DNA from: an uncultured Lachnospiraceae bacterium
GTDB lineage: Bacteria > Bacillota > Clostridia > Lachnospirales > Lachnospiraceae
Assembly (NCBI GenBank): GCA_948665105.1
Contig: CAPNGW010000002.1
Span: 1-37,723 of the forward strand
DNA length: 37,723 nt
Direction of reading: 5' to 3'
Shown one piece after another: positions 4,148 through 34,748 of this stretch. The number at the start of each line of letters is the position of its first letter. Within the stretch, counting starts at the first letter, position 1. The position numbers and the translations under genes were made by a program. The notes beneath the pieces are model-generated. The model had not been told where the DNA came from. It searched no databases and saw only the letters and a list, made by a program, of their open reading frames with translations.

Positions 4148-4148
4148 G

Positions 4149-7962: not shown

Positions 7963-8493
7963 ATGATCCGAAAGCTGTTTGTGACAGTATATCATACAAT
8001 ATATGCCAGATTGAATCACGTAAAATATGTCAGGCATATTGGCGTGAATATAAAAGGGAAATTGTATATATATGGAAATCCCCTTCACATGTTCGGCACA
8101 GAGCCCTGGTGTATCACCCTGGGCGACAATGTTCACATTACCCAGGAGGTTCTTTTTGTTACCCATGACGGAGGCACCCTGCTGTTTCGGAACCGCCAGC
8201 CTGACTTGGAAATTACAAAGCCCATTGTGGTGGGAGATAATGTGTATATCGGTGTGCGGAGTATTATCATGCCGGGAGTTACCATTGGAAATGATGTAAT
8301 TGTAGCAGCGGGCTCGGTGGTCACCAAGGATGTCCCGGATCATTCGGTGGTGGGGGGGATACCGGCACGGGTGATTAAAACCAGTGACGAATATTTTGAA
8401 AAAATCAAAAAAGAGAGTCTCCACCTGGGCCATCTGAAAGGGAAAGAGAAGGATTTGGCATTACGTAAGTATTATGGATATCCTCTGAAGTGA
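7963..8493 (+). CDS. Hexapeptide-repeat O-acetyltransferase (WcaF/maltose acetyltransferase-like)
   Basis: ATG 7963 lies directly after the upstream stop; the tracked 7924 start overlaps the upstream gene. Hexapeptide turns [50 protein letters not shown]. It also contains a G7 run at 8352-8358. Confidence 0.85.
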
Positions 8494-20749: not shown

Positions 20750-21888
20750 ATAAATTAAAGGTAATGACAATTATAGGAACAAGGCCGGAAATTATCCGGC
20801 TGTCGGCAGTGATAAAAAAGTGCGACAAATATTTTCAGCAGATTTTGGTGCATACGGGCCAGAACTATGATTACAGCTTAAACCAGGTGTTTTTTGAAGA
20901 TTTACAATTAAGGGAGCCGGATTATTACCTGGATGCCGTGGGAGCAGATTTAGGTGAAACAATCGGAAATATTATTGCCAAAAGCTATAAGCTGATGGTT
21001 GAAGTCAGGCCGGACGCTTTGCTTATCCTGGGGGATACCAATAGCTGTCTCAGCGCCATCAGCGCAAAAAGGCTTCACATTCCCATCTTCCATATGGAAG
21101 CCGGCAACCGCTGCTTTGACGAGTGCCTGCCGGAGGAGACGAACCGCCGCATTGTGGACCATATTGCGGATGTGAATCTGTGCTACAGCGAGCATGCCAG
21201 ACGGTATTTGAACAGCGAAGGAACGGCAAAGGAGAGAACCTATGTTACCGGCTCACCCATGGCGGAAGTGCTGCGGAGCAATTTAGCAAAAATAGAGGCC
21301 AGCAATATTTTAGAAAAGCTGGGGCTTTCACATAAAAAATATATTCTTCTTTCCGCACATCGGGAGGAAAATATTGATACAGAGGAGAACTTTCAGCAGC
21401 TGTTTACGGCCATCAATGCCCTGGCAGAGAGCTATGATTTGCCCATCCTGTACTCCTGCCATCCAAGAAGCAAAAAGTTTCTTACGCAGCGGGAGTTTCA
21501 GCTGGACCATCGGGTGAGGATGCATGAGCCTCTGGGCTTTCACGACTATAACCATCTTCAGATGCACGCCTTTGCGGTGGTGAGTGACAGTGGAACACTT
21601 CCGGAGGAGTCAAGCTTTTTCGGCTCCATCGGACATACATTTCCGGCCGTTTGCATCCGTACCAGCACGGAACGTCCCGAGGCCCTGGATAAAGGAAACT
21701 TTGTGCTGGCCGGTATTGGGACCCAGCAGGTGCTTCAGGCTGTGAATCTTGCGGTGCAGATGGTGGAAAATGAGGATAGTGGTACACCGGTTCCGGATTA
21801 CGTGGAAGAAAATGTAAGTGGGAAAGTGATAAAAATTATACAGAGCTATGTGGGCATCGTAAATAAGATGGTGTGGAGGAAAGACTGA
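20746..21888 (+). CDS. fnlC: Non-hydrolysing UDP-N-acetylhexosamine 2-epimerase (FnlC/CapG/WbjD)
   Basis: MTIIGTRPEIIRLS, HTGQNYD, LGDTNS and HMEAGNRCFD are all 2-epimerase family signatures. This is the third gene of the fnlABC trio. Confidence 0.9.
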   Translation: MNKLKVMTIIGTRPEIIRLSAVIKKCDKYFQQILVHTGQNYDYSLNQVFFEDLQLREPDYYLDAVGADLGETIGNIIAKSYKLMVEVRPDALLILGDTNSCLSAISAKRLHIPIFHMEAGNRCFDECLPEETNRRIVDHIADVNLCYSEHARRYLNSEGTAKERTYVTGSPMAEVLRSNLAKIEASNILEKLGLSHKKYILLSAHREENIDTEENFQQLFTAINALAESYDLPILYSCHPRSKKFLTQREFQLDHRVRMHEPLGFHDYNHLQMHAFAVVSDSGTLPEESSFFGSIGHTFPAVCIRTSTERPEALDKGNFVLAGIGTQQVLQAVNLAVQMVENEDSGTPVPDYVEENVSGKVIKIIQSYVGIVNKMVWRKD

Positions 21889-23360
21889 TGGAAAATAGTC
21901 GGGAGATTTGGAGGCAGTCGGAGGAACGGGAAGTAAGAATAAGCGATATTCTGTGGAAAATAGTGGAGTCATGGCGGCTGGTTCTTGTGCTTGCGGTGGT
22001 GTTTGTGCTGCTGGTGACAGGGATATTCTACCTAAGGGCAATCAAAGCAGCCTCCGTGCCTGTTGAGCCCGTGGAGCCCGAAGAAGAGGAAGTCTTGACA
22101 GAGGAGGAAAGTCAGGAAGTTGTCCAGGTGCAAATCGGACAAGCACAGCTTTTGGAGCAGCGGGAATATCAAAAGAAATCCGTTTTGATGAATATCAATG
22201 CGTATGAAAAGAATGTAGTTACATTGGAATACTTTATAGATTCAACGCCTACAGAGAGTGGGAACGGCGATATATTGACCAATACCTACAGAAACTATAT
22301 TACGTCCAACAGGATTGTGGAGGATATAAGAGAGGAATGGAATTCTCCACTGAATGACGGATACATTGGGGAACTGATAGAATGTACGAATAGTGATATG
22401 AATATAAAGATGGGGTTTTTGTACGACGAAGACCAGTTAAGCAAATTAAAACGGAGCAGTGACAAATATTTTGTCGTTTCGGTGACGGGCGCTGACGCGT
22501 CCCAGGCAGAGCAGCTGGCGGATGCGGTGCAGAAGGCCCTGGAAATATATAGTGCCAGGATTGCCCAACAGCTGGGGGAGCAGCAGCTAAAGCCCCTGAA
22601 CCGTTATTCCAGTGTGGTACTGGATGAAAAGCTCATTGACAAGCAGCTAAATCTTCAGACCTCTATTAATGTGCAGCAAGACGCAATCGATAACGCAACC
22701 GAGGGGTTTAGTGAGTTACAACTGCGCATGCTGTATGGGGAGGATGAAGACCAGGAGGAGCCGGTCATTGAGGAGCAGATGCCAAGAAGGCCCGCCCTTA
22801 GTAAGAAAGCCATGGCTTTGGGACTTTTCACAGGAGTTTTCCTGGCTTGTATTTGGGTTGCTCTGCGCTATATGTTTGATCCCAGAATCAAGTCCTCCGA
22901 AGAATTACGGCGCATATACAATATGCGTGTGCTTGGCTTTCGGCAGATCGAAGGTACCTCCAGAAAACGTTTGTTTTCCGGCATCGATACCTGGATTGCA
23001 TCAAAAAAGGACAGGGATAAATTTACGCCGGAAAGCTTAAGCAATATGCTTGTGACGAATATGGCTCTGCTATTAAAAAGAGAGAATATAAGCCGTGTGT
23101 TTTTGGCCTCCGGGAGTGTGGATGAGGGCACAATGGAAGAAATAAATGAGATAATCGGACAACTGAAGGGCGAGGGAATTGAGGCTGTATATGAGAGCAA
23201 TATTGTTTCTGATGCGGCAGCGCTGAAATGTATGTCCGATATTGGAAACGCTGTTTTTGTGGTCAGAGAGAACCTTACCCATTACCAGGAGATGGAGAAA
23301 GCGCTGTTGCTGTGTGAAGCCCAGGAGGTGAGAGTTCTTGGGGGAATTGTGGTGCAGTGA
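21888..23360 (+). CDS. Wzz/CpsC-like polysaccharide co-polymerase fused to a degenerate CpsD-like (P-loop-less) C-terminal domain
   Basis: ATG 21888 overlaps the upstream TGA; the tracked start at 21873 is GTG. TM1 is WRLVLVLAVVFVLLVTGIFYL, followed by a long extracytoplasmic region and TM2 MALGLFTGVFLACIWVALRYMF. The tail of about 165 aa lacks a GxxGxGKS/T Walker A and any Tyr cluster. Confidence 0.7.
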   Translation: MENSREIWRQSEEREVRISDILWKIVESWRLVLVLAVVFVLLVTGIFYLRAIKAASVPVEPVEPEEEEVLTEEESQEVVQVQIGQAQLLEQREYQKKSVLMNINAYEKNVVTLEYFIDSTPTESGNGDILTNTYRNYITSNRIVEDIREEWNSPLNDGYIGELIECTNSDMNIKMGFLYDEDQLSKLKRSSDKYFVVSVTGADASQAEQLADAVQKALEIYSARIAQQLGEQQLKPLNRYSSVVLDEKLIDKQLNLQTSINVQQDAIDNATEGFSELQLRMLYGEDEDQEEPVIEEQMPRRPALSKKAMALGLFTGVFLACIWVALRYMFDPRIKSSEELRRIYNMRVLGFRQIEGTSRKRLFSGIDTWIASKKDRDKFTPESLSNMLVTNMALLLKRENISRVFLASGSVDEGTMEEINEIIGQLKGEGIEAVYESNIVSDAAALKCMSDIGNAVFVVRENLTHYQEMEKALLLCEAQEVRVLGGIVVQ

Positions 23361-23382
23361 TGAGGAATAGGGGAGAAGAAAA

Positions 23383-24894
23383 ATGCAGATATCAATTTTA
23401 GATTATTTGGAAAATTCTGCAAGCCGCTTTCCGGAAAAAATTGTATTTTCGGAGGAAAAGAAACAGATTTCCTATGGCCAATTAGAAAAAACGGCAAAAG
23501 CAGTGGGAAGCAGTATTATAAAAACGGCACAGGGGGTATACAAGCGGCCAATCGTAGTGTTCCTTGACAAGGGAATCGATGTGCTGATTTCCTTTATGGG
23601 CATCGTTTACAGTGGAAATTTCTATACCCCCATAGATGTTCATATGCCGGTTTCCAGAATAAATAAGATTTTAGAGACTCTGCAGCCGGAAATGATGATT
23701 ACGGATGAGGAGCATCTTCACCTCGTAAAAGAAACGGCGTTTGCCAAACACGTATTACTGTTTCAGGAGGCGGCGCAGGCAGAGATATTGACAGAGCAGC
23801 TTGAAAATATCAGGGAGAGAATGACAGATACGGATTTGCTGTACGTACTGTTTACATCGGGCTCCACAGGAACACCCAAGGGGGTTACAATCTGCCACAA
23901 GTCAGTGATTGACTATACGGATTATATCACAGATAAATTTGATATTACTGAAAAGGAAATTTTTGGAAATCAGGCACCTTTTTATTTTGACAATTCCATT
24001 TTAGATATTTATTGCACCTTAAAGGCCGGGGCAACCATGCATATCATTCCAAAGGAGCTGTTTGGACAGCCGGTACTGCTTTTGGAATATTTAAAGAACC
24101 AGCGGATAAATATTATTTTCTGGGTTCCTTCCGCCCTTATCATGGTCTCCAAATTAAAGGCTTTTCGGAATGTAGATATCTCGGAAACTTTGCGTAAGGT
24201 ACTGTTCTGTGGAGAGGTAATGCCAAATAAGCAGTTGAATATATGGCGAAAATATTTGCCGCATGTATTGTATGCCAATTTGTATGGCCCCACCGAGATT
24301 ACAGACGCATGTACCTGTTATGTGGTAGACCGGAAATTTGAGGACAATGAGCCTTTGCCCATTGGCACTCCCATGGGAAATACCGGGATTCTTGTGCTGA
24401 ATGAGGGGGATGAGCTGGTGAAGGGTGACGAGATTGGCGAGCTCTGCGTAAGGGGGACCTGCCTGTCTCCTGGCTATTATAATAATCCCGAAAAAACCAG
24501 GGAGGCGTTCATACAAAACCCCTTGAATAAAGCTTATCTGGAATGGATTTATCGAACAGGAGATCTGGTGCGGTATAACGAGTACGGGGAACTGATTTAT
24601 CTGTCCAGAAAGGATTTCCAGATTAAGCATATGGGGCACCGAATCGAACTGGGAGAAATTGAGAATGCTGTTTCCTCCATGGAGGGGATGTCCTCCTGCT
24701 GCTGCTTGTATGATGAAAAGAGAAGCAAGATTGTTCTCTTTATAGAAGAGGATTTAGAGAAGGAAACCATTATAAATGGTATTAAGAATCTGGTGCCGGA
24801 CTATATGTACCCGGGTAAGGTGATTAAGCTGGATAAGCTGCCGATGAATGCCAATGGAAAAACAGACAGGGTAGCATTGAAACAATACTTATAG
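23383..24894 (+). CDS. DltA-like amino-acid adenylating enzyme (carrier-protein ligase), module 1
   Basis: Adenylation cores LFTSGSTGTPKGV, NQAPFYFDNSILDIY, FCGEVMP, LYGPTEITD, YRTGDLVRY..GELIYLSRKDFQIKHMGHRIELGEIE and NANGKTDR. It is collinear with B. subtilis DltA as I recall it. Confidence 0.85.
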   Translation: MQISILDYLENSASRFPEKIVFSEEKKQISYGQLEKTAKAVGSSIIKTAQGVYKRPIVVFLDKGIDVLISFMGIVYSGNFYTPIDVHMPVSRINKILETLQPEMMITDEEHLHLVKETAFAKHVLLFQEAAQAEILTEQLENIRERMTDTDLLYVLFTSGSTGTPKGVTICHKSVIDYTDYITDKFDITEKEIFGNQAPFYFDNSILDIYCTLKAGATMHIIPKELFGQPVLLLEYLKNQRINIIFWVPSALIMVSKLKAFRNVDISETLRKVLFCGEVMPNKQLNIWRKYLPHVLYANLYGPTEITDACTCYVVDRKFEDNEPLPIGTPMGNTGILVLNEGDELVKGDEIGELCVRGTCLSPGYYNNPEKTREAFIQNPLNKAYLEWIYRTGDLVRYNEYGELIYLSRKDFQIKHMGHRIELGEIENAVSSMEGMSSCCCLYDEKRSKIVLFIEEDLEKETIINGIKNLVPDYMYPGKVIKLDKLPMNANGKTDRVALKQYL

Positions 24895-24920
24895 ATATCA
24901 GGTAAGAAAGGCAGAAAAAA

Positions 24921-25154
24921 ATGGAAGAAAGAATTTTGGAAATTTTAGGAGAGGTGAATGAAGAAATCCTCTCATACGAGGGAGACCGGCTCACCAAGGA
25001 CAGTATTATAGATTCTTTTGAAATTATCAATATTGTTTCAGAGCTGGAGGAGGAATTTGATATTGAAATTGATGCGAAATATGTCGTTCATGAAAACTTT
25101 GAGAACAAGGACACAATTATCGCACTGGTAAAGAGGCTGGTGGAAGAGCAGTAG
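24921..25154 (+). CDS. DltC-like acyl/aminoacyl carrier protein, module 1
   Basis: 77 aa and acidic, with the phosphopantetheine-attachment context SIIDSFEIINIV (compare DltC LLDSFGTVELL). It lies between the adenylating enzyme and the MBOAT. Confidence 0.8.
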   Translation: MEERILEILGEVNEEILSYEGDRLTKDSIIDSFEIINIVSELEEEFDIEIDAKYVVHENFENKDTIIALVKRLVEEQ

Positions 25155-25167
25155 ATGAGGTTTCAAA

Positions 25168-26727
25168 ATGCAGTTTGCGTCTGTTGAATTTGGGATATTC
25201 TTTTTGCTGGTTTTAGGAATATATTATCTGGTTAATCAAAGACGAAGATGGATGGTATTGCTGGCTGCCAGTATGGTGTTCTGTGGACATTCTTCCCCAT
25301 GGCATTTCATTTACTTGATGATAGCAATCAGTGTCAGCTTTTTTGCCGCTAAAATCATTGAGAAGCTCCATGAGGATGAGGCGAGAGAGCTTTTTCATAA
25401 GAAGGATATCAGCAGGGAGGAAAAAAAGAAGCTTAAGAATCACTTTAAGAAGAAAAAGCAATGGGTCATAGGGGTCCTGCTTTTCCTTTTGCTGACAGTT
25501 ATTCTCGCACTCAAGCTGGCAAAAAAGCTTTCTCTCATTCAGGAAGGCGCATTGGGCATCCTGATTCCTTTGGGAATTTCTTATTATACATTGGTCATGA
25601 TTGGCTATTGCATAGATGTTTACAGGGAAAAATATCCGGCAGATTCCAATTTTTTTAAGTTCACACTTACAATTATGTATTTTCCCTCATTGCTCCAGGG
25701 ACCAATCAACCGCGTGGATGCGTTAAGGGAGCAATTATTTCAGGAGATACACTGGAATTATTTTGAGGTAAAAGCCGGATTGCAGAGAGCGGTCTGGGGA
25801 TTGTTTAAAAAGCTGGTGATTGCAGACAGGCTGGCAATTTTTGTGAATCAGATTTACGGTGATTTTGGTAATCAGGCAGGAAGCTTTTTGGCAGTCGGAA
25901 CCATTGCATATGCAATTCAGTTGTATGCAGATTTCTCTGGATACATGGATATCGCCATTGGCATCAGCAGAACCTTTGGCGTAAAGCTGGCAGAGAATTT
26001 TAAATGTCCGTACTTTTCTGTTTCAATCAGTGAATTTTGGAAAAAATGGCATATAACCTTGGGCGACTGGTTCAAGGATTACCTGATGTTTCCCTTTGCA
26101 ATGTCTCAGACAGGAAGAAACATAGGGAAGCAAGGACAGAGGATATTTGGAAAGCAGGGAGGCAAAAAGCTTACACTATACCTTGCAACTATGCTGGTGT
26201 GGTTTTCCACCGGCTTATGGCATGGGATTGAGTGGAACTTTATTACCTGGGGGGGGGTATACGGCGTAATAATGGTACTCTCTGATTTTCTGGACCCCCT
26301 TTTTGAAAAGATAAGGAATCGGTGGGGAATCACTAAGGAAAAACGTTGGTTTCGATTTTTTTGCTATATCAGAACCTTTTCCATCGTGTGCTTGGCGGAC
26401 ATTCTGTTCCGGGCGCCAGGATTGAGAGAGGCAGTTATAATCATAAAAAAGATTTTATTTGAATTCCAGGTAAGTGCAATAGAAAACACTGAAATTTGGC
26501 TTTTACAGCTTACAGAGCAGGACTATGTGGTTTTGGTGATATGTTTGATTGCCGGGCTTTTGGTGCATATACTGCATCAAAAGAGAAAAAGCGTTTCGGT
26601 CATATTAGAGCAAAGAAATGTAGTGACCAGATGGATGGTTTATTTCGGGATTACCTGGATTATCATTTTGTTTGGGATATATGGAAGCGGGTATTCGTTG
26701 GAAGGCTTTGCTTATATGCAGTTTTAG
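25168..26727 (+). CDS. MBOAT #2 (DltB/AlgI-like), intact
   Basis: 519 aa and polytopic, with YADFSGYMDIAIG, FWKKWHITLGDWFKDYLMFPF, GLWHGIEW and the C-terminal ...GFAYMQF-stop. It contains an in-frame G9 tract. Confidence 0.9.
   Translation: MQFASVEFGIFFLLVLGIYYLVNQRRRWMVLLAASMVFCGHSSPWHFIYLMIAISVSFFAAKIIEKLHEDEARELFHKKDISREEKKKLKNHFKKKKQWVIGVLLFLLLTVILALKLAKKLSLIQEGALGILIPLGISYYTLVMIGYCIDVYREKYPADSNFFKFTLTIMYFPSLLQGPINRVDALREQLFQEIHWNYFEVKAGLQRAVWGLFKKLVIADRLAIFVNQIYGDFGNQAGSFLAVGTIAYAIQLYADFSGYMDIAIGISRTFGVKLAENFKCPYFSVSISEFWKKWHITLGDWFKDYLMFPFAMSQTGRNIGKQGQRIFGKQGGKKLTLYLATMLVWFSTGLWHGIEWNFITWGGVYGVIMVLSDFLDPLFEKIRNRWGITKEKRWFRFFCYIRTFSIVCLADILFRAPGLREAVIIIKKILFEFQVSAIENTEIWLLQLTEQDYVVLVICLIAGLLVHILHQKRKSVSVILEQRNVVTRWMVYFGITWIIILFGIYGSGYSLEGFAYMQF
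26249..26257 (+). repeat. Poly-G tract (G9), in frame within MBOAT #2
   Basis: Directly counted: tgg ggg ggg gta encodes W-G-G-V. Confidence 0.95.
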
Positions 26728-26743
26728 GTGAATAGGATATCAA

Positions 26744-27535
26744 ATGATGATAAGGATAGAAAACGGCGAGGAATTTTATTCAATATTAAAAGCGTTTAAG
26801 AAGAAGAACAGGAGAATAATATCTAATTTTTTGATGTTTCCGGAAGAGCTTGAAAAGCTGATGAGAGAAAAGAAAGTTTTTTACATGGAGGGGGAGGCAG
26901 GGATTAGCCTTTTTGTGGAGTATGAAGCACACTTTTCTTTTTACTTTTTCTACAAAGGATTGGATGTACCCATAGAAGTAAGAAGATTGGATAAGCCGGT
27001 TGCCTGCGAGATATTTACGAAGAATCAGTTGGAAGAAGGGATAGATGAGAGATTTATAAAAGAAAATTTTCGACAAATAGGTATTTATAAAAGATATATC
27101 TTAAAAAGTGAAAATATTCATGATGTAAAAAGTGGGAACTCCGTTAGGAAAAAAGCAGGAGCAATACATGAAGTCTGGGATGGCATAAAAGAAAACTTTA
27201 ATGTGTTGACGGACCATCTGGTATCTCAGGATGAAATGGAAGAGAAATATGCGGATAAACAATTTTTTTATTATAATCAGGCAAATAGAATAGAAGGTGC
27301 GTTGATTCATGAAACGAAAAATAAAAAATCTGTATTGGAATATATCTTTGTATATCCGGAATTTCGAAAAAAAGGTGTTGCCAGGGAATTGCTGGAAACC
27401 TGGCTTGCCACTTATTTTCAAGCAATAAATAAATTTGAATTATGGGTAAGTACAGAAAATAGGGAGGCTATAGAATTGTACAAAAGATATGGATTCCAGG
27501 AGGATGGCCTTATAAAATATGTTTATTTGATATAA
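26744..27535 (+). CDS. GNAT-family N-acetyltransferase with an uncharacterised N-terminal domain
   Basis: C-terminal GNAT motif A, IFVYPEFRKKGVARELLETWL, followed by AIELYKRYGFQEDG. The gene is very AT-rich. Confidence 0.7.
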   Translation: MMIRIENGEEFYSILKAFKKKNRRIISNFLMFPEELEKLMREKKVFYMEGEAGISLFVEYEAHFSFYFFYKGLDVPIEVRRLDKPVACEIFTKNQLEEGIDERFIKENFRQIGIYKRYILKSENIHDVKSGNSVRKKAGAIHEVWDGIKENFNVLTDHLVSQDEMEEKYADKQFFYYNQANRIEGALIHETKNKKSVLEYIFVYPEFRKKGVARELLETWLATYFQAINKFELWVSTENREAIELYKRYGFQEDGLIKYVYLI

Positions 27536-27603
27536 TTTTTTAGTATAGAGCCAGGTTTATAGTGAGAGCAGGAATAAAGCAGAATGAAAGGTAAAGAGGA
27601 ACG

Positions 27604-29418
27604 ATGGGGCTTTTGATATTATTGGTATTTTTGCTGGCAGTGCCTGGGGTAATTGGAATGGCGGGTGAGAAAATACTAATTAACAGACGAAGAATTAGCA
27701 TGGCCGAGAGTTATCTATGGGGAAACATTATTCTCTGGGCGCTTTTTCAGATACTGTGTGTGCCCATGGCTATGCTTGGAATGAGCTTTAGCATTTTTTC
27801 CGTGATATTTCTGATAATTATCATTGCTTTGACCATGCTTGCTTTGATTAAATACGGCCAGTATATGATTCTGAAAGTGGTTATGCTGAAAGAAGAAATA
27901 AGGAGATTTGGCTGGAAGGAAATCCTGCTGATTACTATAATCGCAGCGCAGATTCTTATATTGGTGTTTGGGGTAACTTATGAATCAAGTGCAGATGATG
28001 CTTCTTATATAGCACTGTCTCTGGACACACTTTCTACAGACCGCATAGCACAGCTGGATCCATATACAGGGCTTGAGGGAGCCATATCGTTAAAACGTAT
28101 ATTGACCTCCTGGAATTTTTATCTCTCATTTTTAGGAAAAATTTCAGGTATTCATGTGGCTGCCATAGCACATACAATTCTGCCAATACTACTTGTACCT
28201 ATGGCGTATATGGCATATCTTTTAATAGGTAGGGCGATTTTCGGAAAGAACAGGAAAAGGACGGTTCAGTTTTTGCTATGGCTGAGCCTGCTGTTTACCT
28301 TCGGCGCTTATTCTATCTATACGGTAACATATCGCCTGACGATTGTGGTCTGGCAGGGAAAAGCTGTGATGGTAACCATTATATTGCCGTTTTTATTTTG
28401 TTTTTTAATCAAAATGAAAGAGATAAAATTAAAGAAAACGGTATGCCTGTTCCTGATTATGGCGTCGGCCTGTGCCATGAGCCTGATGGGCGTTGGACTT
28501 TCTGTTTTTATGGTTATTGTTTCAGCAGTTGCCAAGCTAAAAAGGCATAAAGTAAAGACAGTGGTACCTTTACTGCTGACAGGCATATTGATTTCCATGG
28601 TGGCATTTTACTATATGTGGATGAGAGGGGAAGGGATTTTGTTTTCCCCTAAGTATATTCAGAAGCTGTTCCCCCAGGCTGTGACTATGATAAGAGAGGC
28701 GTTTTCTCTTTACTGGAATGGGACTAAAATACAATGGCTGTATCTTGGTGGATTTTTGATTATATGTTGGCGGGGAAGAAAAAAAAGGAATGTACGATTT
28801 CTCATAAAGTATGCACTGGTTAGTTACATAATTATTTGGAATCCGGTATTTTATTACTTTGCCTTTGTATTTTTAAAAAATGCAAGCACAGGGGTACGGC
28901 TGATTTATACAATGTTTCCAGAGGTGTATATGGCTCTGGCTATGACATTTTTGACTTGCGCATTTCGGGACAGGAAGGGGAGTATGATTGCAGGAGGGGT
29001 TGGTGGCTTGTATATTTTGCTGACAGGGACCATATATCCTAAGGTGGGACATCCTGTGCTTGCAGAGAATACTTATAAGCTGCCCAATGAAGCTGTTCAA
29101 GTGTGCCAGATTCTAAATGAAGATTCAGAAGAACCACCCCTTGTGATGGCAGATGGCGGATTGGTTCTGTATCTGCGCCAATATAGCAGCCGCGTGAAAA
29201 TGGTATATGGCAGATATGGTTATATATATCAGGGAGAACAAATTTTTCAATTAATAAATGAACAGCGGATAACCAAAGAAGAAATATGGACATTTCTGGA
29301 AGAAAATAACTGTGATTATGTGGTATGGAGAAAAAATGATGCAGATATAGAGGCGTTCATACAACTGGGGGGAGAGCTGATTGAAGAAACACAGAATTAT
29401 GCTATCATAAAAAGATAA
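27604..29418 (+). CDS. Uncharacterised polytopic membrane protein (more than 10 TM) with a C-terminal soluble domain; possibly GT-C-like
   Basis: 604-aa ORF with many hydrophobic helices and an acidic loop motif, YESSADDASY, after the early TMs. The soluble tail of about 130 aa starts near residue 470. No family is confidently recognised. Confidence 0.65.
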   Translation: MGLLILLVFLLAVPGVIGMAGEKILINRRRISMAESYLWGNIILWALFQILCVPMAMLGMSFSIFSVIFLIIIIALTMLALIKYGQYMILKVVMLKEEIRRFGWKEILLITIIAAQILILVFGVTYESSADDASYIALSLDTLSTDRIAQLDPYTGLEGAISLKRILTSWNFYLSFLGKISGIHVAAIAHTILPILLVPMAYMAYLLIGRAIFGKNRKRTVQFLLWLSLLFTFGAYSIYTVTYRLTIVVWQGKAVMVTIILPFLFCFLIKMKEIKLKKTVCLFLIMASACAMSLMGVGLSVFMVIVSAVAKLKRHKVKTVVPLLLTGILISMVAFYYMWMRGEGILFSPKYIQKLFPQAVTMIREAFSLYWNGTKIQWLYLGGFLIICWRGRKKRNVRFLIKYALVSYIIIWNPVFYYFAFVFLKNASTGVRLIYTMFPEVYMALAMTFLTCAFRDRKGSMIAGGVGGLYILLTGTIYPKVGHPVLAENTYKLPNEAVQVCQILNEDSEEPPLVMADGGLVLYLRQYSSRVKMVYGRYGYIYQGEQIFQLINEQRITKEEIWTFLEENNCDYVVWRKNDADIEAFIQLGGELIEETQNYAIIKR

Positions 29419-29443
29419 TTTTATGCAGCGGAGGATACCAAAG

Positions 29444-31020
29444 ATGTCTTACACATCATTACTTTTCTTTATATTTGTTATTGCACTGATTTTTGTCTAC
29501 TATATAGTGCCAAAGAGCTGGCAGTGGAAGGTACTGCTCATTGCAAATATCATATTCTATGCCTCCAATGGCGTAATACCACTTGTTTTCATAACAGCAA
29601 CCACTCTTTTGACATGGTTTGCAGCACTTTTATTGGAAAAGAAGGACCTCTGCCAGAGCAGGGAGCTGGAAGGGGAACCCCTTTCAAGGGAAGAGAAAAA
29701 CCAAATCAAGGTAGCGTATAAGAGACAGAAAAAAGGAATTCTCATACCTGTGCTCTTAATGGTATTTGGACTTCTTGCATATGCCAAATATACAAATTTT
29801 GGTATTGGTATTATTAATGGTATTGCAGGAGTGGACATGATACAAGTACAAAGTATCATCGTCCCCCTGGGAATCTCTTTTTACACTTTTATGTCCGTAG
29901 GATATATCCTGGATATCTACTGGAAAAAATATCCTGCGGAGCATAATTTCTTTAAGTATGCAACATTTACAACGTTTTTCCCCCATGTGGTACAAGGCCC
30001 CATTGGGCGCTATAATAAGCTGGCTCCGGAATTTTTCAAAGGAAGGCATTATGATTTTCGTCAAATGGTGTCTGGCTTTGAGTTATTTTTATGGGGACTT
30101 TTCCAAAAGCTAGTAATTGCTGACCGTCTCGGTATTTTTGTTGATAACGTTTTTGCAGACTACCAAAATACCGGGGGGGGGTATTTCTATTAACGCTGGC
30201 GTTTTATTCCATTCAAACGTATGCTGATTTCTCCGGCTGTATGGATATCTGCCGGGGGATTTCTGAGATTCTTGGAATCCATCTTGAGAAGAACTTCAAT
30301 CATCCGTATTTTGCAAAAACCATACCGGAGTTCTGGCAGAGATGGCATATCTCTATGGGAGCATGGTTTAAGGATTACCTGTTTCTACCCATTTCCAATT
30401 CATCCTTTGTAAAAAAATCAAGTAAAAAATTAGGAGTGAAATATGGCTCCGGTGTCAGAAAAAAATTTGCGGCGAGCTTTCCTGTTGCCATTGTCTGGCT
30501 GGCCACCGGTGTCTGGCATGGCGCCGGATGGACCTTTATTTTCTGGGGATTGTTCCATGGGTGCCTGACAATCGGAGGTACGGTTTTTTCTGAAAGAATC
30601 TCCAGGCTCACATCCGTATTACATATTCCAACAAAAGCATTTTGGTGGAAATTATTTCAGATGTCCAGAACCTTTTTCCTGTGCTGTATAGGAAGAATTT
30701 TCTTTCGGGCTCCGGATTTGCAGGTGGCGGGGCATATTATAAAGAAAATAACCACAGATTTGCAATATCAATCACTGTTTAGTGGACACATATTTCAATT
30801 CGGTTTGGGCAGAGAGAATATGATGATAGCCTTGGCCTCCATTGGTATTTTATGGAGCGTCAGCATGCTGCAGGAAAGATGCTCTATTCGGGAAAAGGTG
30901 GCGAAGCAGAATATTGTAATGCGGTACGCATTGCTTTACATCGCGATTTTTTCTATTTTGATTTTAGGTATCTATGGGCCAGGTTATGATACATCAACTT
31001 TTATTTACAATGCATTTTAA
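29444..31020 (+). pseudogene. MBOAT #3 (DltB/AlgI-like), frameshifted at a G9 tract (phase-OFF allele or homopolymer error)
   Basis: ORFs 29423-30193 and 30241-31020 are two halves of one MBOAT. The likely start is ATG 29444 (MSYTSLLFF) after a GGAGGA RBS. The downstream frame is open from 30181 (VFLLTLAFYSIQTYADFSGCMDICRG). Later motifs are FWQRWHISMGAWFKDYLFLP and GVWHGAGW. One extra G joins the two frames. Confidence 0.85.
30173..30181 (+). repeat. Poly-G tract (G9) at the MBOAT #3 frameshift site
   Basis: Directly counted. As sequenced it reads acc ggg ggg ggg tat ttc tat taa, which terminates. Confidence 0.95.
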
Positions 31021-31035
31021 AGGAGGAACAAGAGA

Positions 31036-31254
31036 ATGGAACAGATTGTACAAATTATCAGAGAGATTTGCCCCACCATTGGTGAGCTGGAGGGAGTGAA
31101 GCTTGTCACAGACAAAATCATTGATTCCGTGGAGCTGGTGCAAATCATTTCTGACCTGGAAGAGGCGTTTCAGGTGGAAATTGATATGGAGGATATTGTG
31201 CCGGAAAATTTTGATACGGTAGAAGCGATTTGGAAGCTGATACAGCAGCTTTAG
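31036..31254 (+). CDS. Acyl carrier protein, module 2
   Basis: 72 aa and acidic, with the Ser attachment context KIIDSVELVQIISDLEEAF and a strong AGGAGG RBS upstream. Confidence 0.8.
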   Translation: MEQIVQIIREICPTIGELEGVKLVTDKIIDSVELVQIISDLEEAFQVEIDMEDIVPENFDTVEAIWKLIQQL

Positions 31255-31263
31255 GAGAGAGAA

Positions 31264-32718
31264 ATGTATACATCTGTGTTGGAAGCAATTTATAAGCATA
31301 GCAGGAGCAGGGCAAAGAGGCTGGCGGTTGCAGATGAGAAGCTATCTCTGAACTACGAAGAATTATGGAGGCTGATTGTCCTTAAGGCTTCAGTGCTGGG
31401 CGAGGGATTTGCCATCAGTGATTATGTGTTGGTGGAATGTTCTCAGGATGTGGCGTTTATTGTGAAATGTCTGGCTTGCCAGTACGCGGGCCTGATTAGT
31501 GTGCCTGTGGAAATGCAGGCGCCTTTGGAACGAATCTGGGAGCTTCAAAGGAAGCTGGGCACAACATCATTGATAGGCAGGGGGGATTATGAGATTGATA
31601 AGGAAGAGCTGTACTCTGCCTTTCAAGGTGATGCTGGCAATCAGCCTGCACCGGAGGGATTTCCCCGGAAGGATGTGGTGGCTGAGATTCTCTACACCAC
31701 CGGAACTACCGGAGAATCCAAAGGAATCGCAATTACACATGGCAATAATATTGCCATCACGGAAAATATTATCTGCGGAACCCAAATGGAGGAGGACAGT
31801 GTAGAATTGGTCCCCTTGCCCTTGAGCCATTCTCACGGGCTGAGAACGGTATACGCCAACCTTGTACATGGCAGTTCGGTGGTGGTTTGTGATGGTGTGC
31901 TTCAAATAAAAAGAATCTTTCAGTTAATAGGCCAATACCAGGTTACAGCCTTGGACTTATCTCCCAGCGCGGCCCAGGTGTTGATGAAGCTTTCCAAAGG
32001 AAAATTGAAGGATTACAGAGAGCAAATCAGATTCGTACAGCTGGGGACGGCAATGCTTTCAGAAAATGTGAAGGATTTATTACGCAGCACCTTTCCGGAG
32101 AGCAGGCTATATAACTTTTATGGTTCTACGGAAGCGGGAAGAACCTGCTCCTTGGACTTTAACCATGAAAGGGTTGGGGAAGGCTGTATTGGACATCCCA
32201 GCGTGAACGCGCGTTTTATCCTGGTGGATGAAGAGGGGGAAGAGATTACCCAAAGGGGAAGAGAGTATACCGGACGTTTGGCTGTTGCAGGCTCTATGAA
32301 TATGAAGGAGTATATAGGTGAGCCGGAGCTTACCGGGGAGGTTATGCATGGCGGATATATATATACCTCTGATATATCTTATATAGACGCAGAGGGTTTG
32401 GTATACGTACTGGGACGTGCAGATGATATTATTAATTACAAGGGCATAAAAATTTCTCCTGCAGAAGTGGAGGCAATTATTATAAAGTGTTCCGAAATAA
32501 AAGAATGCGCCCTTGTGGCGAAAGAGGACACAATGTGTGGCCAGATACCGGTACTGTTTGTTGTACCCGAAGAAGAATATGAGGAACAAAGGCTGGTGAG
32601 CCATATAAAAGAGCTTGTGGAAGATAATAAGAGGCCCAAATTAATAAAGAAGGTGGAGGAGCTTCCCAAAACATCAAATGGGAAGATATTAAGAAGAAGA
32701 CTGAGGGAGTGGTTGTGA
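31264..32718 (+). CDS. AMP-dependent acyl ligase (acyl-CoA synthetase/FAAL-like), module 2
   Basis: ANL superfamily cores LYTTGTTGESKGI, FYGSTEAGR, YIYTSDISYIDAEGLVYVLGRADDIINYKGIKISPAEVE and SNGKILRR. It has PLPLSHSHGL where amino-acid adenylation domains carry the FDxS Asp. Confidence 0.85.
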   Translation: MYTSVLEAIYKHSRSRAKRLAVADEKLSLNYEELWRLIVLKASVLGEGFAISDYVLVECSQDVAFIVKCLACQYAGLISVPVEMQAPLERIWELQRKLGTTSLIGRGDYEIDKEELYSAFQGDAGNQPAPEGFPRKDVVAEILYTTGTTGESKGIAITHGNNIAITENIICGTQMEEDSVELVPLPLSHSHGLRTVYANLVHGSSVVVCDGVLQIKRIFQLIGQYQVTALDLSPSAAQVLMKLSKGKLKDYREQIRFVQLGTAMLSENVKDLLRSTFPESRLYNFYGSTEAGRTCSLDFNHERVGEGCIGHPSVNARFILVDEEGEEITQRGREYTGRLAVAGSMNMKEYIGEPELTGEVMHGGYIYTSDISYIDAEGLVYVLGRADDIINYKGIKISPAEVEAIIIKCSEIKECALVAKEDTMCGQIPVLFVVPEEEYEEQRLVSHIKELVEDNKRPKLIKKVEELPKTSNGKILRRRLREWL

Positions 32719-32793
32719 GAGGTAAGAATGGGGAATATAGGGGATTTAATGGAAGCCACTGTTCCATAGAACAATAAAAGATAAAAAGAGAAT

Positions 32794-32822
32794 TTGACTT
32801 TCCATCGCGTATTATGTATAAT
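32794..32822 (+). promoter_or_regulatory. Near-consensus sigma-A promoter-like element
   Basis: TTGACT (32794-32799), a 17-nt spacer, then TATAAT (32817-32822). It lies upstream of the terminator palindrome and about 135 nt before the ABC operon start. Confidence 0.4.
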
Positions 32823-32834
32823 AAGTTCAATCAA

Positions 32835-32876
32835 GCAAAAATAAAGCGCCATTTTGAACACGCGCTTTATTTTTGC
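32835..32876 (+). terminator. Rho-independent (bidirectional-type) terminator ending the polysaccharide operon
   Basis: Perfect 15-bp inverted repeat, GCAAAAATAAAGCGC (32835-32849) with GCGCTTTATTTTTGC (32862-32876), around a 12-nt loop. The GC core is flanked by A-rich 5' and T-rich 3' arms. Confidence 0.65.
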
Positions 32877-32957
32877 AAATTTTGCATAAAGTTACAGAGT
32901 ATTCTGTTCAGTACTGTCACTGTCAAATAGCTGTTTTGAACAAGAAAGGAAAACAAA

Positions 32958-33956
32958 ATGAGAAAAATGAAAAAGTTACGTGTATTCCCCGTAGTATTAA
33001 CGGCAGCCCTGTTCACAGGCCTGCTGGCCCTCTCTGGCTGCGGCTCCAAAAAGGAACAGGTATTAATCTACACCAGTGCCGAGTCCTATCGGGTAGACGA
33101 TTTGAAAGCCCGGCTCGAGAAAGAATTCCCCGATTATGACTGTGTTGTGGAATACAAGGATACCGGAAGCCATGCGGCTCAGCTCATCGCAGAGGGCAAG
33201 GAGACAGACTGCGACATCACCTATGACCTGGAGTATTCCTACCTGGAGGAGCTGGCGACTGCAGGTGTCTTGGCAGATGTGTCTGACTATGACACCTCTG
33301 TCTATACCGAGGACGCCATCACCAGCAGCTTCTATCTCCCGGAGCTTAAGAACGGCGGAGCCATCGTTATCAATCCCGATGTATTGGCCGAAAAGAATCT
33401 GCCGGTACCCCAAAGCTATGAGGACTTACTGAAGCCGGAATACGCGGGTCAGATTTCCATGCCCAGCCCCAAATCCTCCGGTACCGGATATATGTTTTTG
33501 AAATCCCTGGTCAACTCCATGGGAGAGGACGCAGCTTTTGCCTATTTTGACAGCCTTACAGAGAATATCCTGTCCTATACCTCCTCTGGCTCCGGTCCCA
33601 TCAATGCCCTGAAGAATAAAGAGGTGGGAATTGGCTTAGGGATGACGGCGCAGGCAGTCACTGCCATCAATGAAGGAGCCAATCTGGAGATTCTCTATTT
33701 TGCGGAAGGCTCTCCCTACTCCATGTACGGGCAGGCGATAATCAGCGGGAAGGAAGAGCGCGCTTGTGTGAAGGAAGTATTTGACTTTATGATCAATACA
33801 TACGGCAAGGAAACCAACGAGAAATTTTATCCCGAGAAGATTTTTAAGGATATAACCCCTGAAATTGAGAATTACCCCACCGACATCAGCTATGCAGATA
33901 TGAGCAACAATACCTCGGAAGAAAAAGCCAGGCTGTTGGAGAAGTGGAATCACTAG
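32958..33956 (+). CDS. ABC transporter substrate-binding lipoprotein (Fbp/ThiB/PhnS/PotD-like family)
   Basis: Signal peptide with lipobox LALSGC (Cys28). Its size of 332 aa and the SSGTGY segment are typical of cluster-D type solute-binding proteins. First gene of the ABC operon. Confidence 0.8.
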   Translation: MRKMKKLRVFPVVLTAALFTGLLALSGCGSKKEQVLIYTSAESYRVDDLKARLEKEFPDYDCVVEYKDTGSHAAQLIAEGKETDCDITYDLEYSYLEELATAGVLADVSDYDTSVYTEDAITSSFYLPELKNGGAIVINPDVLAEKNLPVPQSYEDLLKPEYAGQISMPSPKSSGTGYMFLKSLVNSMGEDAAFAYFDSLTENILSYTSSGSGPINALKNKEVGIGLGMTAQAVTAINEGANLEILYFAEGSPYSMYGQAIISGKEERACVKEVFDFMINTYGKETNEKFYPEKIFKDITPEIENYPTDISYADMSNNTSEEKARLLEKWNH

Positions 33957-33973
33957 GAAGGGAAGTGTGAACA

Positions 33974-34738
33974 ATGGTGAAAACCAGTCATAAACTGGAA
34001 GCAGTATCCCTGGTACAGAGCTTTGACGGAAAGTGTGCGCTGGATAAGGTGAGCTTCCAGGTACAGGAGGGAGAATTTCTCTCCATCTTAGGCCCCTCGG
34101 GCTGTGGTAAGACGACCCTGCTTCGGATTTTAATCGGACTTCTCAAGCCCACGGAAGGATTGCTTTACAAGGACGGCGTTGACATTACCCATACCCCGGC
34201 TGCAGAGCGCGGCATGGGCATTGTGTTCCAGAATTATGCTCTTTTTGAAAATATGACCGTTCTGGGGAATGTGGAATACGCCCTGAAAATCAAAAAAGCC
34301 ACCAGGCAGGAGGCCAGAAGCAAGGCGGAGGCCATGATTGCGCACATGGGTCTTAAGGAGCATATGGCAAAAAAGCCCCACGAGCTTTCCGGCGGACAGC
34401 AGCAGCGTGTGGCTATAGCCAGAACACTGGTCTTAAATCCCGACGTAATTCTCTTTGATGAGCCCATGTCGGCCCTGGATGCAGATACACGTCTCATGCT
34501 TAGGAAGGAGCTGAAAAAGCTCCAGAAGGAGTTCGGCACCACCATGATTTATATCACCCATGACCAGGAGGAGGCATTTGCGCTTTCTGACCGGATTATG
34601 GTCATGGAGGAGGCGAAGGTGGTGCAGCTTGCCACCCCGGAGGAGATTATTGATTCACCGGCCAATGATTATGTGCGGACCTTCGTGCTTCAAAATCTCC
34701 AGGCAAAAATTGATTCTCTTGTGAAATATGTAAGGTGA
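33974..34738 (+). CDS. ABC transporter ATP-binding protein
   Basis: Walker A GPSGCGKTT, Q-loop FQNYALF, signature LSGGQQQR, Walker B ILFDEP and H-loop ITHDQ. At 254 aa it has no C-terminal TOBE-like extension. Confidence 0.9.
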   Translation: MVKTSHKLEAVSLVQSFDGKCALDKVSFQVQEGEFLSILGPSGCGKTTLLRILIGLLKPTEGLLYKDGVDITHTPAAERGMGIVFQNYALFENMTVLGNVEYALKIKKATRQEARSKAEAMIAHMGLKEHMAKKPHELSGGQQQRVAIARTLVLNPDVILFDEPMSALDADTRLMLRKELKKLQKEFGTTMIYITHDQEEAFALSDRIMVMEEAKVVQLATPEEIIDSPANDYVRTFVLQNLQAKIDSLVKYVR

Positions 34739-34748
34739 GGGCTTGGAC

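Follow-up and report, generated by a model that had tools for sequence, protein, structure and literature searches.

Carrier-protein-linked MBOAT cassettes with poly-G tracts at the 3' end of a Wzx/Wzy polysaccharide operon of an uncultured Lachnospiraceae bacterium

The systems closest to the one described here are the DltABCD pathway with the microprotein DltX and the acetylation systems of the PatA/AlgI type. In the Dlt pathway, an adenylating enzyme charges a small carrier protein that serves this pathway alone, a membrane-bound O-acyltransferase (MBOAT) passes the acyl group across the membrane to the Tyr of an FxYxxF hexapeptide, and DltD, a membrane-anchored protein of the SGNH type, completes the transfer (PMC12148441). 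The hexapeptide acts as an acyl shuttle. It resides on DltX in Dlt and is fused via two extra C-terminal helices to PatA/AlgI-type MBOATs, and its Tyr accepts the acyl group from the MBOAT and hands it on to the SGNH partner, as established for DltX and PatA (PMC12148441). PatA/PatB, AlgI/AlgJ/AlgF/AlgX, WssH/WssI and PatA1/2-PatB1/2 of Bacillus anthracis share these helices and the fused motif, and they use a separate extracytoplasmic SGNH partner to act on a glycan outside the membrane. They take acetyl from acetyl-CoA with no carrier protein (PMC12148441), in agreement with a preliminary description of the DNA studied here, and according to a mechanistic paper of 2025, no MBOAT-SGNH pathway apart from Dlt has a carrier protein (PMC12148441). 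We analyzed a stretch of 37,723 nucleotides (hereafter the window; contig CAPNGW010000002.1 of assembly GCA_948665105.1, positions 1 to 37,723, forward strand) from an uncultured Lachnospiraceae bacterium, in which two modules, each made of an adenylating enzyme, a carrier protein and an MBOAT, lie in one operon with wzx and wzy. To our knowledge, D-alanylation by Dlt is so far the only MBOAT-SGNH pathway that is fed by a carrier protein.

A DltA-like adenylase and a DltC-like carrier have been recruited for a non-teichoic surface glycolipid in AlmEFG, which adds glycine to the lipid A of Vibrio cholerae. However, AlmG belongs to the cytoplasmic-face lipid A acyltransferase family; it is not an MBOAT-SGNH pair, and no acyl-shuttle Tyr takes part. 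Full-text literature searches returned no description of carrier-protein MBOAT cassettes in polysaccharide loci, although an earlier mention is possible.

We read the 3' end of the Wzx/Wzy operon as a post-export decoration block consisting of two Dlt-like channels, an acetyl-type MBOAT and a GT-C glycosyltransferase, in which each MBOAT would be switched by a poly-G tract. We give this reading a probability of about 0.6. The architecture of the modules is a real hybrid, which combines the donor side of Dlt with the fused shuttle of PatA/AlgI and an SGNH finisher; it is widespread and mechanistically interpretable. The genes in question are as follows.

14765-16194, + strand: MBOAT_A, short MBOAT without adjoining carrier protein, frameshifted (OFF), ends in FIYFQF; split ORFs 14765-14986 and 15025-16194
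16210-17142, + strand: X310, membrane-anchored SGNH-like protein, probable partner of MBOAT_A; hydrophobic N-terminus, G-G-S block and C-terminal HL..GA block that align with the D-like family
17169-18467, + strand: Y432, membrane-anchored SGNH/DltD-like transferase with a C-terminal beta-sandwich, by homology to the D-like family of the cassettes
23383-24894, + strand: A1, stand-alone amino-acid adenylation enzyme of the nonribosomal peptide synthetase (NRPS) type, 503 aa; Pfam AMP-binding, 5e-65
24921-25154, + strand: CP1, 77-aa carrier protein; weak PP-binding match (E 0.005, below the Pfam cut-off)
25168-26727, + strand: MBOAT_B, carrier-protein-type MBOAT, 519 aa, intact, ends in FAYMQF; Pfam MBOAT
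26744-27535, + strand: GNAT N-acetyltransferase, 263 aa; Pfam Acetyltransf_1/7/10
27604-29418, + strand: DUF6077 membrane protein, 604 aa, predicted glycosyltransferase of GT-C fold (AF2 and Foldseek)
29444-31020, + strand: MBOAT_C, carrier-protein-type MBOAT, frameshifted (OFF), ends in FIYNAF; split ORFs 29423-30193 and 30241-31020
31036-31254, + strand: CP2, 72-aa carrier protein; Pfam PP-binding, 6e-06
31264-32718, + strand: A2, acyl-CoA-synthetase-like adenylating enzyme, 484 aa; Pfam AMP-binding and AMP-binding_C

An ORF and Pfam check confirmed the genes listed in the preliminary description, with their coordinates and + strand. MBOAT_C (29444), taken there as an intact gene, proved to be two ORFs separated by a frameshift at a G9 tract (30173-30181).

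All three MBOATs contain the Pfam MBOAT domain. The sole NCBIfam model that they match is DltB (TIGR04091), at 144-157 bits versus a cut-off of 375. An FxYxxF hexapeptide is fused to the C-terminus of each of them (FIYFQF in A, FAYMQF in B, FIYNAF in C), and a Tyr at position -4 is found in essentially all of the 85 surveyed MBOATs; the C-terminus of MBOAT_C also gives a weak Pfam DltX match. The Dlt logic seen earlier in both modules is upheld, and it is extended by the fused motif and by the SGNH/DltD-like genes at 16210 and 17169, which had been missed. A separate DltX-like ORF would not be needed, and there is none among the listed ORFs of at least 60 aa, a listing below which a protein of DltX size (43 positions in the Pfam model) falls. 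In the cassettes, unlike in Dlt, the shuttle motif is part of the MBOAT and does not sit on a DltX microprotein. DltB has about 400 aa and lacks the C-terminal motif, whereas the window MBOATs span 476-525 aa, with B and C at about 520 and bearing an insert rich in Lys and Arg. Five residues of MBOAT_B, namely H295 (R-W-H), H352 (W-H-G), F514, Y516 and F519, are invariant in 30 relatives. The relatives of this protein number in the thousands, with lengths of about 520-530 aa and identities of 36-41%.

The insert separates two classes of MBOAT. MBOATs that adjoin a carrier protein have an insert of 47-51 aa with 10-15 Lys/Arg, whereas those that do not have 22-29 aa with 0-5 Lys/Arg at this site. 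In MBOAT_B, the insert covers 50 aa (residues 62-112) between transmembrane helices TM2 and TM3 and contains 14 Lys/Arg; the TM2-TM3 segment of MBOAT_A has 25 aa and none. Meanwhile, the carrier proteins are highly acidic, with a median net charge of -16, which is also the charge of CP1. We infer that the basic insert could be the docking site for the acidic carrier protein. MBOAT_A falls in the short class without an adjacent carrier protein and therefore fits an acyl-CoA donor, so that it is probably an acyl-CoA-type channel with acetyl as donor; together with the protein at 16210, it probably works exactly as the PatAB/AlgIJ-type systems do. The assignment of this MBOAT as a probable acetyl channel, made in the preliminary description, holds in respect of its class, but the gene is split at a G9 tract (14968-14976). 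The window MBOATs share with the PatAB/AlgIJ type the two extra C-terminal helices and the fused motif, and MBOAT_B and MBOAT_C differ from it in being flanked by an adenylase and a carrier protein.

In module 1, A1 passes the cut-off of the NCBIfam model AA-adenyl-dom (346 versus 317 bits) and fails the DltA equivalog TIGR01734 (329.5 bits versus a cut-off of 559.85). Its nearest PDB structures are the A domains of LgrA and DltA, and it is about 31% identical to DltA of Bacillus subtilis and Bacillus cereus. We derived its nine-residue specificity code from an alignment to the verified DltA sequences of these two species. A GrsA fragment, of unverified sequence, served as a positional ruler only; the FDxS, GGE and YGPTE anchors are unambiguous. 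The code reads DNLFLCLDA, versus DLMTMCTVA in B. subtilis DltA and DLMTLCTVA in B. cereus DltA. Asp235, Cys301 and Ala331 are common to A1 and both DltAs, and Leu299 is shared with B. cereus DltA only. Asp235 of adenylation enzymes binds the alpha-amino group. Cys301, which A1 shares, is reported in the structural literature to set D-selectivity in DltA. The identification of A1 as DltA was rejected, as the protein fails the equivalog and its pocket code differs. As judged from the code, the substrate of A1 is probably an alpha-amino acid other than D-alanine. The same code occurs in four related loci (L003, L004, L007 and L011; related loci and contigs are given here as L numbers), and the A1 of L004 is about 67% identical overall.

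The attachment residue Ser32 (CP1 numbering) is conserved in all 74 aligned carrier proteins, comprising CP1 and CP2 of the window, that of L004 and 71 from the survey described below. CP1 scores 27.1 and CP2 25.8 on the DltC model NF003464 (cut-off 68), and the dltC model TIGR01688 gives 17.3 versus a cut-off of 52.35.

The GNAT gene next to module 1 has counterparts in other cassettes. Homologous GNATs stand between the adenylase and carrier-protein genes in L014, L017 and L022. Among loci with exactly the A1 code, a formyltransferase takes this place in L004-L006, L007 and L011, and the window and L003 have the GNAT; L083, with the near-identical code DNLFLCMDV, has neither. Because such an enzyme accompanies A1-type cassettes, the loaded amino acid may be N-acylated, and the GNAT probably N-acetylates the amino acid of module 1. 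LgrA, in which Val-S-PCP is formylated, offers an analogy for the N-acylation of a carrier-bound amino acid. We also notice that two genes precede the adenylase gene in L004, L007 and L011, one for a membrane protein with DUF6020 (554 aa) and one for an additional, divergent member of the D-like proteins (373 aa), for example at L004:2255-3919 and 3935-5056. DUF6020 may be another large extracytoplasmic transferase, like DUF6077.

Module 2 is built from different parts. A2 is 23% identical to A1, passes no NCBIfam equivalog and reaches 133 bits on the DltA model TIGR01734. The closest PDB structures are 4-coumarate-CoA ligase, MenE and FadD, and its code, SHRDQGFRT, lacks Asp235. We therefore infer that the donor of A2 would be a non-amino carboxylic acid. 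In this respect, too, the cassettes depart from Dlt, with A2 not being an amino-acid enzyme and the code of A1 being unlike that of DltA. CP2 is 42% identical to CP1, and the two fragments of MBOAT_C are 96-98% identical to an intact 525-aa protein of L003. The two different donor groups proposed in the preliminary description gain from the presence of two cassette types (A1 with Asp235, A2 without), but two of the three channels are out of frame as sequenced. The mirror gene order pointed out there is present as well, but it corresponds to the native orders of the two cassette types (A-CP-MBOAT-D and D-MBOAT-CP-A, where A is the adenylase, CP the carrier protein and D the D-like SGNH protein), neither of which is the Dlt arrangement. 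An inverted duplication behind the mirror order was rejected, given the 23% identity of A1 and A2 and the native status of both orders.

The finishing enzyme of each channel is expected among membrane-anchored SGNH proteins. For the proteins at 16210 and 17169, neither NCBIfam nor Pfam gave anything above threshold. Y432 (17169) matches 47 D-like proteins of the cassettes (best 3e-28) and is about 30% identical to X321 and Y440, two paralogues that are attached to the modules of L003. X310 (16210) is divergent and matches only one surveyed D-like protein, at 1e-4. In an alignment of 87 D-like proteins, the G-x-S block keeps its Gly throughout, 55 members have Ser and 32 have Cys as the predicted nucleophile, 86 have the C-terminal His, and 83% have an Asp three positions ahead of this His. 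Y432 retains Ser58 and His309. A profile of 63 D-like sequences against PDB sequences retrieved the GDSL lipases 3P94 and 4IYJ (5e-4 to 1e-3) in alignments that include the D..H block, and a six-sequence profile retrieved noise plus AlgX at E 0.4. Sub-threshold Pfam matches to DltD (E 0.007-0.017), SGNH and DUF1574 were obtained on relatives, with no DltD match on window proteins. The AF2 model of Y432 (pLDDT 70, pTM 0.74) has an FN3-like C-terminal domain. Its Foldseek list is led by FN3/Ig matches to this beta-sandwich, with DltD at ranks 22-43, and the sole near-full-length matches (359-368 alignment columns) are DltD structures 3BMA, 6PFX and 6O93 (prob 0.87-0.96). On the basis of the conserved Ser/Cys-His pair, the GDSL profile matches, the Foldseek matches to DltD and the sub-threshold Pfam matches, we regard the D-like proteins as membrane-anchored SGNH proteins of DltD-like architecture; the link to DltD itself is only moderately supported. 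In the set L007-L086, the proteins with a predicted Cys nucleophile typically have it in the context G-D-C-E-V-Y. SGNH transferases do not usually rely on Cys at this position.

Between the two modules, the DUF6077 protein gave a confident AF2 model (pLDDT 89, pTM 0.90, from a 36-sequence alignment). The top Foldseek matches are AftA (8IF8, E 1.4e-6), AglB, human STT3B, DPY19, AftD and AftB; the GT-C matches have E values from 1.4e-6 to 2e-2 at prob 1.0. The Asp pair D131-D132, an acidic motif in the first outer loop, is invariant. The model thus identifies this protein as a predicted glycosyltransferase of the GT-C type, which would depend on a polyprenyl-phosphate sugar and act outside the membrane.

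Each of the three MBOAT genes contains a G9 tract, and only MBOAT_B is in frame as sequenced.

14968-14976, + strand: poly-G tract G9 in MBOAT_A, frameshift, OFF
26249-26257, + strand: poly-G tract G9 in MBOAT_B, in frame, ON
30173-30181, + strand: poly-G tract G9 in MBOAT_C, frameshift, OFF

Setting the tract to G10 or G7 in silico gives a single ORF for MBOAT_A (476/477) and for MBOAT_C (about 532 codons; 525 aa from the 29444 start in relatives), and neither gene has in-frame stops other than the tract frameshift. There are four runs of at least nine G in the window versus 0.62 expected under an analytic first-order Markov model (P = 0.004), and three of the four are in the MBOAT genes, at non-homologous positions (around residue 68 in A, 361 in B and 251 in C). 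C runs of at least seven are absent from the window. The coding strand of the window has 26.5% G and 17.9% C, a strong asymmetry, and every 1-kb bin shows a positive GC skew. A G10 run is located in the FrhB-like Fe-S gene (13752-13761), by the pyruvyl transferase system, and has the same length in L093 and L094. Other G runs in genes of decoration type are a G8 in the 4098 ORF (4511-4518) and a G7 in a hexapeptide acetyltransferase gene (8352-8358).

Comparison with related contigs revealed the following alleles.

MBOAT_A, G9, OFF: window, L093, L101
MBOAT_A, G11, OFF: L094
MBOAT_A, G13, in frame: L098
MBOAT_B, G9, ON: window, L001, L002, L003
MBOAT_B, G8, OFF, split into 366 + 151 aa: L103-L106
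MBOAT_C, G8, OFF: L088
MBOAT_C, G9, OFF: window, L002, L090
MBOAT_C, G10, ON: L003, L087, L089, L091, L103-L106

L103-L106 are 98.7-99.6% identical to the window where measured (L105, L103). L103 is 99.6% identical over 13.1 kb and shows the opposite pattern, with MBOAT_B at G8 (OFF) and MBOAT_C at G10 (ON). The G8, G9 and G10 alleles of MBOAT_C fall into two allele types, and within each type their flanks do not differ. Contig L001 ends within the MBOAT_C tract, and for MBOAT_A, five of the ten Logan contigs that carry the gene downstream stop no more than about 20 nt from the tract. The end of L001 and the starts of L095, L097, L098, L100 and L101 all coincide with the MBOAT_A or MBOAT_C tract or fall no more than about 20 nt away from it. 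Such breaks are suggestive of length heterogeneity within a sample or of a collapse of coverage.

The frameshifts might instead have no regulatory meaning, with MBOAT_A and MBOAT_C being decaying pseudogenes or the products of homopolymer errors, and with one fixed acylation channel. Every tract length comes from assembled contigs and not from reads, so that fixed strain differences or errors of homopolymer assembly could underlie the variation; homopolymers are error-prone, contigs break at the tracts, and the window, L001 and L002 seem to represent a single strain. On the other hand, the frameshifted genes retain 96-98% protein identity to an intact relative and have no other in-frame stops. 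One tract occurs at three lengths with identical flanks in different samples, and loci of 99.6% identity are reciprocally ON and OFF. Four separate samples agree on G8 in MBOAT_B and G10 in MBOAT_C, and long G tracts are over-represented and sit at non-homologous positions in three paralogous MBOATs. We regard a non-regulatory origin as improbable. The variation is the pattern expected of slipped-strand contingency loci, and the tracts may switch at high frequency. Locking a tract ON or OFF is conceived as recoding GGGGGGGGG to GGAGGTGGC.

Phase variation of glycan modification through homopolymers is known from poly-G genes of the Campylobacter jejuni capsule and from O-acetyltransferases of Neisseria and Haemophilus. 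The locus resembles these systems in its intragenic poly-G tracts (8-13 bases), in the apparent switching of glycan-modifying enzymes by changes of +/-1 and in the combinatorial surface variants that would result. It differs from them in belonging to what appears to be a commensal of the gut Clostridia and in having tracts in three paralogous MBOAT genes of one locus. Full-text literature searches found no report of poly-G phase variation in Lachnospiraceae, although here too an earlier mention is possible.

In the decoration block as we read it, the reaction would proceed in four steps. First, a cytoplasmic adenylating enzyme would activate a carboxylate and thioesterify it to the small acidic carrier protein. 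Second, the carrier protein would dock on the Lys/Arg-rich cytoplasmic insert of the MBOAT. Third, the acyl group would cross the membrane by way of the conserved His of the MBOAT and end up on the Tyr of the FxYxxF motif in this same protein. Fourth, a membrane-anchored SGNH/DltD-like enzyme (17169, possibly 16210) would take the acyl group on its Ser and esterify the polymer outside the membrane. Module 1 (A1-CP1-MBOAT_B) would deliver an alpha-amino acid, probably not D-alanine and probably N-acetylated by the GNAT, and module 2 (MBOAT_C-CP2-A2) a non-amino carboxylic acid. MBOAT_A (14765) would be an acyl-CoA-type, probably acetyl, channel, and the DUF6077 GT-C protein would add a sugar outside the membrane. 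Length changes of the three poly-G tracts would turn the channels ON or OFF; since each MBOAT gene has its own switch, up to eight acylation patterns could arise, and here module 1 alone would be ON.

To place the modules in a wider context, we searched one genome per GTDB species with an MBOAT_B-family profile. At least 595 stretches matched, and the best 80 loci were analyzed by searching their ORFs with proteins of the window and of L003/L004. The hosts are Lachnospiraceae, Acutalibacteraceae, Oscillospiraceae, Anaerotignum, Acetobacterium and [Clostridium] fimetarium, with single metagenome-assembled genomes (MAGs) of Gastranaerophilales and Treponema; the top species-representative matches are Lachnospiraceae MAGs of only 40% identity. 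Adenylase, carrier protein, MBOAT and D-like protein occur together in 66 of the 80 loci, overwhelmingly in the order A-CP-MBOAT-D, and a D-like SGNH gene is present in 75. Since this set recurs in other species, it is not a chance juxtaposition. The A2-like adenylases follow the order D-MBOAT-CP-A, as in module 2. The closest relative, L003, stems from another metagenome and has 97-98% nucleotide identity to the window in module 2 and about 90% in module 1. Its genes run A1-CP1-MBOAT_B-X321, GNAT, DUF6077, MBOAT_C (intact, 525 aa)-CP2-A2-Y440, which suggests that the window modules lost SGNH genes kept by L003; the window modules would then have to rely on 17169 and/or 16210.

The carrier proteins might instead feed cytoplasmic N-acyltransferases, either the LpxD-like protein at 4901 or the GNAT, for the synthesis of N-acylated amino sugars, with the MBOATs being ordinary O-acetyltransferases that use acetyl-CoA. 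LpxD-family enzymes use acyl-ACP, and the hexapeptide acyltransferase at 4901 scores 173 bits on the LpxD model, below the cut-off of 242; moreover, a protein of the type encoded at 4098 co-occurs with A1-type cassettes. However, a homologue of the LpxD-like protein is found in none of the 80 surveyed loci and is missing from the gene table of L003. The supply of the 4901 protein by the carriers, offered as an alternative in the preliminary description, is made less likely by this absence, from which it also follows that the conserved partner of the carrier proteins is the MBOAT. Most of the 66 complete loci have adenylase, carrier protein, MBOAT and SGNH-like genes side by side and in one and the same order, and the Lys/Arg-rich insert tracks the presence of a carrier protein. 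We consider feeding of N-acyltransferases very improbable.

The adenylases of the survey fall into discrete code classes, none of which has the DltA code; the main ones are listed here.

DAKCAGLGM: 26 loci
DVKI(L/M)SLCN: about 16-19 loci
DSKD.CIVD: 2 loci
IARC.SQAS: 4 loci
S.R..G.. (A2-like): 5-6 loci

The DAKCAGLGM class has Lys at position 239. Lys at this pocket position is the signature of an acidic side chain in NRPS codes. A gene of the Asp/Glu-racemase family accompanies the class in 18 loci (L008, L018, L020, L024, L027, L033-L037, L039, L046, L053, L061, L064, L068, L079 and L081), within 40 nt upstream of the adenylase gene in 12 of the 18; in L068, for example, it lies at 5858-6571, directly before the adenylase gene at 6599. 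This linkage suggests a five-gene operon for the esterification of an envelope polymer with D-Asp or D-Glu, and it is a good circumstantial argument that residues besides D-Ala are used for aminoacylation by the family.

The setting of the modules within the operon bears on the acceptor. The window contains an unbroken array of co-directional genes on the + strand from 345 to 32718. It begins with a Bac_transf priming transferase (345 on) and, by Pfam, includes a UDP-sugar dehydrogenase, four GT4-type glycosyltransferases (positions listed: 1741, 6783, 8552), an epimerase, a second hexapeptide transferase and a pyruvyl transferase. Wzx (10984), Wzy (12231) and the FrhB-like Fe-S protein follow, and after them come the MBOAT at 14765-16194 and the genes at 16210 and 17169, whose products both have an N-terminal membrane anchor and no Pfam match. 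FnlABC-type genes occupy 18534-21888, before one further gene directly upstream of module 1.

21888-23360 (alternative start 21873), + strand: Wzz/CpsC-like chain-length protein; weak NCBIfam polys_exp_MPA1 match

This protein has 490 aa as called in L001 and L103. No TagF/LtaS-type (tag/tar/ltaS) gene was found among the window proteins by Pfam, as the preliminary description had reported. Two cassettes, the GT-C gene and a third MBOAT gene are located together at the end of a Wzx/Wzy array, with similar embedding in L003, L004 and L007, which makes the polysaccharide of the locus the most economical acceptor.

A different view is that the cassettes are the dlt equivalents of this lineage, which aminoacylate a teichoic-acid-like or other wall polymer and whose position in the polysaccharide locus is incidental or regulatory. 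In its favor, the majority of the related cassettes form operons of their own, with four or five genes and unrelated neighborhoods, the sampled flanks hold CDP-glycerol glycerophosphotransferases (2 of 115 proteins) and proteins with choline-binding repeats (2 of 115), and DltB is the only NCBIfam model that the MBOATs match. In contrast, the cassettes of the window, L003, L004-L006, L007 and L011 are within loci rich in glycosyltransferase and Wzx/Wzy genes and on the same strand as their neighbors. All Dlt equivalog cut-offs are missed widely, and the A1 code is unlike that of DltA. Two different cassettes, a GT-C gene and a third MBOAT gene cluster at the operon end, in a window free of teichoic acid genes; the doubling of the cassettes within a Wzx/Wzy operon and their poly-G tracts also set them apart from Dlt. 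We consider it unlikely that the cassettes are dlt equivalents.

Several observations weigh against the reading of the 3' end as a switched decoration block, and they include the assembled origin of the tract lengths and the apparent single strain behind the window, L001 and L002. The choice of the locus's own polysaccharide as acceptor follows from gene position alone. The preliminary description had proposed looking for adenylase-CP-MBOAT triplets in capsular polysaccharide loci; the full gene set does recur, but only 7 of the 80 cassettes are near recognizable homologues of the window polysaccharide genes, a lower bound of low sensitivity. Most relatives stand alone outside recognizable Wzx/Wzy loci, and a teichoic-acid-like or other envelope polymer may therefore be the acceptor; the cassette family as a whole may decorate such other polymers. 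When 115 proteins that flank the cassettes in 20 sampled loci (L007-L066) were assigned to Pfam families, mostly unrelated genes emerged (transglutaminase-like 8, Ig-like surface 7, GT1 4, TagF-like 2). On the finishing side, the window modules lack the adjoining SGNH gene that L003 has at each module, the position of Asp306 in Y432 is Asn, and the NCBIfam DltD models match no window protein. The likeness of Y432 to DltD in Foldseek is weak (E about 1e-2, TM 0.32-0.38, on the pLDDT-70 model). On the donor side, no phosphopantetheinyl transferase is encoded in the window, and a substrate assignment for A1 was rejected as DNLFLCLDA matches no NRPS code known to us.

Transglutaminase-core (8/115) and bacterial Ig-like surface-protein domains (7/115) are the commonest families beside the stand-alone cassettes, which raises the possibility that some cassettes are tied to surface proteins instead of glycans.

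Other features of the window are described here briefly. The 4098-4904 ORF (probable start near 4146) encodes about 250 aa without a Pfam or NCBIfam match and with the conserved pattern RHD(I/V)E...HxGLH...FSxHRP. Counterparts are located at L003:3373-4104, L004:13579-14337 and L007:14497-15255; the protein was found only in loci with an A1-type cassette (code DNLFLCLDA) and not in the other surveyed loci, and it may be part of the same pathway. The decoration block (25-31 kb) has a G+C content of 35-40% versus 44-50% elsewhere in the window, which is compatible with a separate acquisition of the block. In an Rfam scan of the whole window, no family reached its gathering score, and a promoter and terminator scan of 21000-33200 gave counts no higher than those of shuffles. 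A promoter-like site (32794-32822, 11/12 match) lies in the 240-nt gap between the array and the ABC transporter genes; as it precedes these genes, it suggests that the operon ends at 32718. The region downstream (32958-37276) encodes the ABC transporter (SBP_bac_6/8 binding protein, ATPase and fused double permease) and an HTH-plus-nucleotidyltransferase (LicC-like) protein. The junction between operon and transporter is kept in L002, L003 and L092, and the decoration block thus abuts a stable chromosomal anchor.

Beyond the single locus, we put forward a broader and tentative proposal, which we hold at slightly short of even odds. Gut Clostridia would possess a large family of carrier-protein-dependent MBOAT-SGNH systems, in effect Dlt with DltX fused, whose adenylation enzymes have diversified and which esterify surface glycopolymers with various groups. 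The racemase-linked class would use D-Asp or D-Glu, and other members would use amino acids with an N-acetyl or N-formyl group or simple organic acids. In the present locus, two of them would be stacked with an acetyl-type MBOAT, each under a poly-G switch. If true, this would overturn the generalization that Dlt alone among MBOAT-SGNH systems uses a carrier protein, and it would widen the ester chemistry of surface polymers past acetate and D-alanine to other or N-blocked amino acids and organic acids. The adenylase code and the cassette type would then be a handle for predicting decorations from sequence. Commensal Firmicutes may diversify their capsule chemistry by homopolymer phase variation, and one strain could show up to eight capsule acylation chemotypes. 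Such variation of the capsule would be relevant to phage receptors, to recognition by antibodies and to the resistance to host peptides that depends on charge.

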